A DNA stretch of 64,000 bases from Escherichia coli O127:H6 str. E2348/69 (GTDB taxonomy: Bacteria > Pseudomonadota > Gammaproteobacteria > Enterobacterales > Enterobacteriaceae): the NCBI RefSeq assembly GCF_000026545.1, contig NC_011601.1; one strand, 5' to 3'. Made by a program: the position numbers. Shown here piece by piece: positions 56,876-59,800 of this stretch. Every line of letters starts with the position of its first letter. The stretch's first letter is position 1.

Positions 56876-59800
56876 GGCTGCGGCGACGATCCTTTACACC
56901 TTTATTGGCGGTTTCCTCGCGGTGAGCTGGACTGACACTGTACAGGCCAGTCTGATGATTTTTGCCCTGATCCTGACGCCAGTTATCGTCATTATCAGTG
57001 TCGGTGGCTTTGGTGACTCGCTGGAAGTAATCAAACAAAAGAGCATTGAAAACGTGGATATGCTCAAAGGGTTGAATTTTGTCGCCATTATCTCGCTGAT
57101 GGGTTGGGGGCTGGGTTACTTCGGGCAGCCGCACATCCTGGCGCGTTTTATGGCGGCAGATTCTCACCACAGCATTGTCCATGCGCGTCGTATTAGTATG
57201 ACCTGGATGATCCTCTGCCTGGCAGGGGCGGTGGCTGTCGGCTTCTTTGGTATCGCTTACTTTAACGAGCACCCGGCGGTAGCAGGTGCGGTAAACCAGA
57301 ACGCTGAACGCGTGTTTATTGAACTGGCGCAAATTCTGTTTAACCCGTGGATTGCCGGGATTTTGCTGTCGGCGATTCTGGCGGCGGTAATGTCAACGTT
57401 AAGTTGCCAGCTGCTGGTATGTTCCAGTGCGATTACCGAAGATTTATACAAAGCGTTTCTGCGTAAACAGGCCAGCCAGAAAGAGCTGGTGTGGGTAGGG
57501 CGAGTGATGGTGCTGGTAGTGGCGCTGGTGGCGATTGCGCTGGCGGCAAACCCGGAAAACCGCGTGCTGGGCTTAGTGAGCTACGCGTGGGCAGGCTTTG
57601 GCGCAGCGTTTGGTCCGGTGGTGCTGTTCTCGGTGATGTGGTCACGCATGACGCGCAACGGTGCGCTGGCGGGGATGATCATCGGTGCGCTGACGGTTAT
57701 CGTCTGGAAACAGTTCGGCTGGCTGGGTCTGTACGAAATTATTCCGGGCTTTATCTTCGGCAGTATCGGGATTGTAGTGTTTAGTTTGCTGGGTAAAGCG
57801 CCGTCAGCGGCGATGCAAAAACGCTTTGCCGAGGCCGATGCGCACTATCATTCGGCTCCGCCGTCACGGTTGCAGGAAGGGTAAGGGAAGGCGTTTTACC
57901 GAAAATTTCACGTCATAACAGGAAGCAGGCAGAGGGCAATCAGTGATTGCCCTCTGCGTTTTTTCTCAAAATATTTTTACATCTTCTCATCATTATCACT
58001 ACATTCCACTTGTATTTTTCTTCATCGTAATGATAATCGCTATCAATGCGATTTACTTTTCTTTGCATAGATTGACTCAGAAAAACGTTTAAGGGTGGGT
58101 GGCATGTTTGTTCCGTTTCTCATTATGTTGCGCGAAGGACTTGAAGCCGCGCTGATTGTCAGTTTGATTGCCAGCTATCTTAAGCGTACCCAGCGAGGCC
58201 GATGGATTGGTGTAATGTGGATTGGCGTGTTGCTTGCCGCTGCGTTGTGTCTGGGCTTGGGTATCTTCATTAACGAAACCACCGGCGAATTTCCGCAAAA
58301 AGAACAGGAACTGTTTGAAGGCATTGTGGCGGTGATCGCCGTGGTGATCCTTACCTGGATGGTTTTCTGGATGCGCAAAGTGTCGCGCAACGTCAAAGTA
58401 CAACTGGAGCAGGCGGTCGATAGCGCATTGCAGCGTGGAAATCATCATGGCTGGGCGCTGGTGATGATGGTCTTTTTTGCCGTTGCAAGGGAAGGGCTGG
58501 AGTCGGTCTTTTTCCTGCTGGCGGCATTTCAACAAGATGTCGGGATCTGGCCGCCGCTGGGTGCAATGCTTGGTCTTGCTACAGCCGTGGTGCTTGGCTT
58601 CCTGCTCTACTGGGGCGGTATTCGCCTCAATCTTGGTGGATTTTTTAAATGGACCAGTCTGTTTATTCTCTTCGTCGCCGCAGGGCTGGCAGCTGGTGCC
58701 ATTCGCGCATTTCATGAAGCCGGATTGTGGAACCACTTTCAGGAAATCGCCTTCGATATGAGCGCGGTGCTCTCAACTCACTCGCTGTTTGGCACACTGA
58801 TGGAAGGGATTTTTGGCTATCAGGAAGCACCGAGCGTCAGCGAAGTCGCCGTCTGGTTTATTTATCTCATCCCGGCGCTGGTGGCATTTGTTCTGCCACC
58901 ACGCGCAGGGGCGACTGCGTCCCGCTCCGTGTAGCAAATACGACGCAAACTCTTGCTTAGTTACAACATACTTTAAAGGGATAGTCTCGTCATGACCATT
59001 AACTTCCGTCGTAACGCATTGCAGTTGAGCGTGGCTGCGCTGTTCTCTTCTGCTTTTATGGCTAACGCCGCCGATATTCCGCAAGTCAAAGTCACTGTGA
59101 CAGATAAGCAGTGCGAGCCGATGACCATTACGGTTAACGCCGGGAAAACACAGTTCATTATTCAGAACCACAGCCAGAAGGCGCTGGAGTGGGAGATCCT
59201 CAAAGGCGTGATGGTGGTGGAAGAGCGGGAAAATATCGCCCCTGGTTTTAGCCAGAAAATGACGGCGAATTTACAGCCTGGCGAATACGATATGACCTGC
59301 GGTCTGCTGACTAACCCGAAAGGGAAGTTGATCGTCAAAGGTGAAGCAACGGCGGATGCGGCGCAAAGTGATGCGCTGTTAAGTCTTGGTGGTGCAATTA
59401 CTGCATATAAAGCGTATGTCATGGCGGAAACCACGCAATTGGTGACCGACACCAAAGCCTTTACCGACGCTATTAAAGCAGGCGATATCGAAAAAGCGAA
59501 AGCACTGTATGCGCCGACGCGCCAGCACTATGAGCGCATCGAACCGATTGCTGAACTGTTCTCCGATCTGGATGGCAGCATTGACGCCCGTGAAGATGAT
59601 TACGAGCAAAAAGCCGCTGATCCGAAATTCACCGGTTTCCACCGTCTGGAAAAAGCATTGTTTGGCGATAACACCACCAAAGGAATGGATAAGTACGCTG
59701 ACCAGCTTTATAGCGATGTGGTCGATTTGCAAAAACGCATCAGTGAACTGGCTTTCCCTCCTTCAAAAGTAGTCGGCGGTGCAGCCGGACTGATTGAGGA

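Follow-up and report, generated by a model that had tools for sequence, protein, structure and literature searches.

The gene at positions 58104–58934 (+ strand) of the window, as we call the whole 64,000-nt (64 kb) stretch of DNA analysed, is almost certainly the wild-type efeU of EPEC E2348/69, which opens the efeUOB operon and encodes an Ftr1/EfeU-family permease, a polytopic protein of the inner membrane. Reading-frame, motif and profile evidence converge on an intact, 276-aa, Ftr1-type iron permease. The gene is an ordinary member of its family at the usual chromosomal locus, with nothing new about it, and E2348/69 keeps the standard set of ferrous iron uptake genes.

An intact efeU gene

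The efeU frame runs from an ATG at 58104 to a TAG at 58932–58934 (831 nt; 276 codons and the TAG), with no internal stops in either the ORF list or the translation, and the translated protein carries the motif REGLE twice, at aa 10–14 and aa 129–133. A preliminary description of this DNA had claimed an uninterrupted 276-aa EfeU with both REGLE motifs, and this was confirmed by the ORF list, the raw sequence and the translation; a search for an overlooked frameshift or stop within efeU of the window found none. RefSeq annotates the same CDS in E2348/69 as efeU, with the ATG start and a length of 276 aa (WP_000497957.1).

Family membership was clear from profile searches. EfeU matched Pfam FTR1 (PF03239) over profile positions 1–283 of 284, with E=1.2e-88 and 297.6 bits against a cut-off of 25.3, and it also exceeded the cut-offs of the NCBIfam EfeU equivalog NF041756 (330.7 bits; cut-off 255) and of TIGR00145 (348; cut-off 303.8). 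In a crude Kyte–Doolittle analysis (19-aa window), six segments reached at least 1.6, near aa 5, 38, 70, 152, 185 and 248, while aa 120–138, which hold the second REGLE, scored 1.59, just below the 1.6 threshold. Both REGLE motifs thus lie within hydrophobic stretches (aa 1–23 and aa 120–138), and the predicted pattern fits a protein with about seven transmembrane helices, as is typical of this family. A sequence search of a copy of the PDB found no solved relative of EfeU.

The mechanical ORF for efeU opens three codons 5′ of the ATG, at GTG 58095, which would give a protein of 279 aa in place of 276 aa if this were the true start. We consider this improbable, as the ATG is the start annotated by RefSeq in E2348/69, Nissle, O157 and K-12 alike, and the Pfam and NCBIfam profile alignments begin at residues 1–5 of the ATG form. 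Furthermore, the GTG is overlapped by a purine-rich AAGGGTGGG that sits just 5′ of the ATG, where its position would better suit a ribosome-binding site for initiation at the ATG.

The efeUOB operon and its upstream region

Downstream of efeU, and on the same strand, lie efeO (58992–60119, +), encoding 375 aa, and efeB (60125–61396, +), encoding 423 aa, both intact, in the order efeU–efeO–efeB with spacings of 57 nt and 5 nt. EfeO combines the Pfam domains Cupredoxin_1 and Peptidase_M75, and with its N-terminal signal-like sequence it fits a periplasmic cupredoxin and imelysin (M75) protein. EfeB carries the Dyp_perox_N/C domains of a DyP-type haem peroxidase. Both proteins scored above the curated cut-offs of their NCBIfam equivalogs (NF041757 and TIGR01412, respectively), and neither frame has internal stops. 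EfeB is predicted to be Tat-exported: the twin-arginine motif SRRRLLK occurs at aa 13, a hydrophobic segment comes next, and TIGR01412 is itself named tat_substr_1.

The preceding gene, putP, has its stop at 57884. Between it and efeU lies a strong terminator-like hairpin (57929–57957, +; a 13-bp stem and then a T-run), and for this reason efeUOB is predicted to be a transcription unit separate from putP. Beyond the operon, the mechanical ORF for phoH (61747–62811) would encode 354 aa, the RefSeq PhoH having 262 aa and a start at window position 62023; the Pfam PhoH domain begins only at residue 149 of the 354-aa form, and codons 1–92 of the longer frame may be untranslated.

The putP–efeU spacer of the window (57885–58103; 219 bp) was compared with those at the K-12 locus (2459–3000) and the O157:H7 locus (1406–3929). 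It varies by lineage: the window and Nissle 1917 have 219 bp, K-12 has 542 bp, and O157:H7 carries an additional 1,344-nt hypothetical gene within the spacer. The proximal ~150 bp 5′ of efeU is conserved in all four strains; the distal part differs.

Within this conserved region we found a Fur-box-like site, CGTAATGATAATCGCTATC (58026–58044, +), which matches 15 of the 19 positions of the consensus GATAATGATAATCATTATC and has an identical sequence in the window, K-12, Nissle 1917 and O157:H7. Across both strands of the 64 kb, only three sites match at 15/19 or more, this one included. The other two matches, each 15/19, were at 30234–30252 (+) and 4717–4735 (−), in AT-rich prophage DNA and, in one case, inside nleB2; these prophage matches are probably due to chance. 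At the stricter limit of three or fewer mismatches to the 19-nt Fur consensus, the window contained no match, the 58026–58044 site lying beyond that limit.

A weak sigma-70-like promoter match was also present (57976–58005, +; TTTACA and TACATT separated by 18 nt; 9 of 12 positions), and K-12, Nissle and O157 share its TTTACAT part. The scan returned two such matches against 3.5 expected in shuffled sequences, a count that is not significant, and we claim no promoter because sigma-70-like sites were no commoner here than in shuffled sequence. Regulation of efeUOB by Fur-dependent iron repression and by acid induction (through CpxAR) is to be expected by analogy with related systems.

Predicted function of EfeUOB in E2348/69

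It is a strong inference, drawn by analogy, that EfeUOB is functional in E2348/69. The near-identity (~99%) to the O157:H7 and Nissle proteins, the intact partner genes and the conserved proximal upstream region together make function very likely.

In published family work, the glutamates of the REXXE motifs, which would lie in hydrophobic segments 1 and 4, are thought to carry iron across the membrane. By analogy with characterised systems, periplasmic Fe2+ would be oxidised and handed on by EfeB, a putative Tat-exported DyP haem peroxidase, together with EfeO, a putative periplasmic cupredoxin–imelysin protein, and the iron delivered by these two proteins would then be imported by EfeU. This agrees with a model given in PMC3832793, in which periplasmic EfeB and EfeO oxidise and bind iron and pass it to the Ftr1-like permease EfeU.

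That efeU is intact and EfeUOB nevertheless silent or inactive in this strain, through strain-specific residues or the shorter, B2-type upstream region, seems unlikely to us. Substitutions do separate the proteins of this strain from those of O157:H7, Nissle and K-12 (G179, V263 and V276 in EfeU, and 3–6 in each of EfeO and EfeB), and the distal putP–efeU intergenic region does differ between lineages. However, the changes are conservative, fall outside REGLE and concern ~1% of residues, the proximal promoter region and the Fur-like site are invariant, and Nissle, whose EfeU has been characterised, shares the 219-bp intergenic layout. Still less probable is that G179, V263 and V276 of EfeU, or the short B2-type spacer, confer a substrate preference or regulation different from that of the O157:H7 EfeUOB.

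A functional EfeUOB, which we favour, may make only a small physiological contribution, since in PMC7549933 deletion of efeOB from an ExPEC strain is reported to have left virulence unchanged. Our literature search found no EPEC-specific study of EfeUOB.

Strain background and prophage

The window is the reverse complement of positions 3042717–3106716 of the E2348/69 assembly NZ_CP059840.2, with 63,999 of its 64,000 bases matching, and efeU is 100% identical to that of E. coli E2348/69. The sole mismatch, at window position 42941, falls within the transposase CDS (42701–44074) of ISEc13, an IS4-like element located between yccJ and agp; the window thus probably represents a different assembly or isolate of this strain. 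It had been proposed that the sequence lies outside the K-12 lineage, and this holds: the match to EPEC E2348/69, together with a lambdoid prophage bearing the effector genes nleB2, nleC and nleD, identifies the window as EPEC and not K-12.

The prophage takes up the left half of the window (1 to ~32945), with its type III effector cargo at the right end: a DUF1076 protein gene (28403–28981), nleB2 (29343–30323), nleC (30357–31376), an nleH fragment (31447–31614), an IS256 fragment (31662–31783) and nleD (31845–32543). Homology to K-12 restarts at ~32946, 72 bp before torT (33018–34046), which places the prophage junction in the spacer upstream of torT, presumably near the HK022 attachment site. 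Two of the tail genes are annotated as frameshifted, the tape-measure gene (16810–19865) being represented by two large ORFs at 16780–18939 and 19023–19865, and the tail-tip J gene (22256–25970) by two at 22256–24223 and 24924–25970. The prophage is probably defective.

The K-12 frameshift and its distribution in E. coli

We aligned efeU of the window with that of K-12 DH1, which is 830 nt long and is annotated as a ‘frameshifted’ pseudogene. The alignment contained a single gap: in DH1 a one-base deletion has reduced the GG at efeU nt 106–107 to a single G, whereas both G residues are present at the corresponding window 58209–58210 (+; codon Gly36). The K-12 frame consequently ends after 36 residues (MFVPFL...RGRWIV*) and retains only the first REGLE, and the remainder of the protein can still be read in another frame. 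When the G was re-inserted in silico, K-12 efeU encoded 276 aa, with three residues differing from EfeU of the window. The preliminary description had held K-12 efeU to be split by a frameshift, and the alignment places this lesion at codon 36. This position, found here by alignment, agrees with the literature on MG1655, PMC2808357 and PMC7549933 describing efeU of that strain as inactivated by a frameshift.

To see how widespread the deletion is, we considered complete E. coli genomes, of which 5,417 out of 5,426 contain efeU at a coverage of at least 80%. A 69-nt K-12 probe across the deletion was run against 5,382 complete genomes, and the exact K-12 allele was found in 368. The other 5,014 had 95–99% identity to the probe, a band that would also take in genomes with the deletion and a nearby SNP, such that the survey addresses the exact K-12 allele only; every one of these that was sampled spanned 70 nt, that is, had the extra G. 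Among the 60 exact matches listed were K-12 and standard laboratory-strain names (MG1655, DH1, DH5alpha, C600, J53, NCM3722 and others), and the rest of those 60 were laboratory-sourced strains with K-12-sized chromosomes of ~4.5–4.8 Mb.

Relatives in phylogroups A and B have an intact efeU, for example ETEC H10407 and E. coli B strain C2566. As the exact allele was listed in K-12 and laboratory strains, with H10407 and C2566 intact, the one-base deletion is peculiar to the K-12 lineage. An intact efeU is therefore the norm for the species and excludes K-12 only; it is a poor marker of lineage, as 5,014 of the 5,382 genomes show no exact match to the K-12 allele, and all those sampled among them have the extra G.

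A sequencing or assembly error that introduced a spurious G into the window is effectively refuted, as nothing specific supports it beyond the general risk of error in short runs of G, and the two-G form occurs in all sampled non-K-12 genomes (from the 5,014 without the exact K-12 allele) and in an independent E2348/69 assembly that is identical across efeU.

At the efeU locus, then, K-12 is the exception, a point established in the literature since 2006–2007, and being exceptional here it serves poorly as a reference strain for the physiology of EfeUOB. Both the K-12 frameshift and the functional wild-type state, in pathogenic and commensal strains, have been known since the work of Grosse in 2006 and Cao in 2007.

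Comparison with characterised EfeU systems

The closest characterised counterparts of the EfeU described here are those of O157:H7 and Nissle 1917, which have the same length, share 273 of 276 residues and both REGLE motifs with it, and lie in the same putP–efeUOB–phoH locus, with efeO and efeB downstream and the same proximal upstream sequence. Relative to EfeU of the window, the O157:H7 protein differs by G179A, V263A and V276A and the Nissle 1917 protein by M8I, G179A and V276M, none of these differences falling within the REGLE motifs. K-12, like O157, has A at the three positions where the window has G179, V263 and V276. EfeO and EfeB differ from those of the compared strains by 3–5 and 4–6 residues, respectively. 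The Nissle 1917 EfeU has been reported to transport ferrous iron (Grosse 2006), and the O157:H7 and Nissle systems to be functional (Grosse 2006, Cao 2007), in both cases as cited in PMC3832793, PMC2808357 and PMC7549933.

The K-12 pseudogene (MG1655, DH1 and others) has 97.6% DNA identity to efeU of the window and the same genomic context; it is unlike the window in having one G fewer at codon 36, with a 36-aa product as the result, and in its 542-bp putP–efeU spacer.

More distantly, EfeU is homologous to yeast Ftr1p, the founding high-affinity iron permease of the FTR1 family, according to PMC4746246 and PMC3832793. Ftr1p belongs, like EfeU, to PF03239, which EfeU matches over its full length and with two REXXE motifs. 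The two systems differ in their partners, Ftr1p working with the multicopper oxidase Fet3p, whereas EfeU is paired with the periplasmic cupredoxin–M75 protein EfeO and the DyP peroxidase EfeB.
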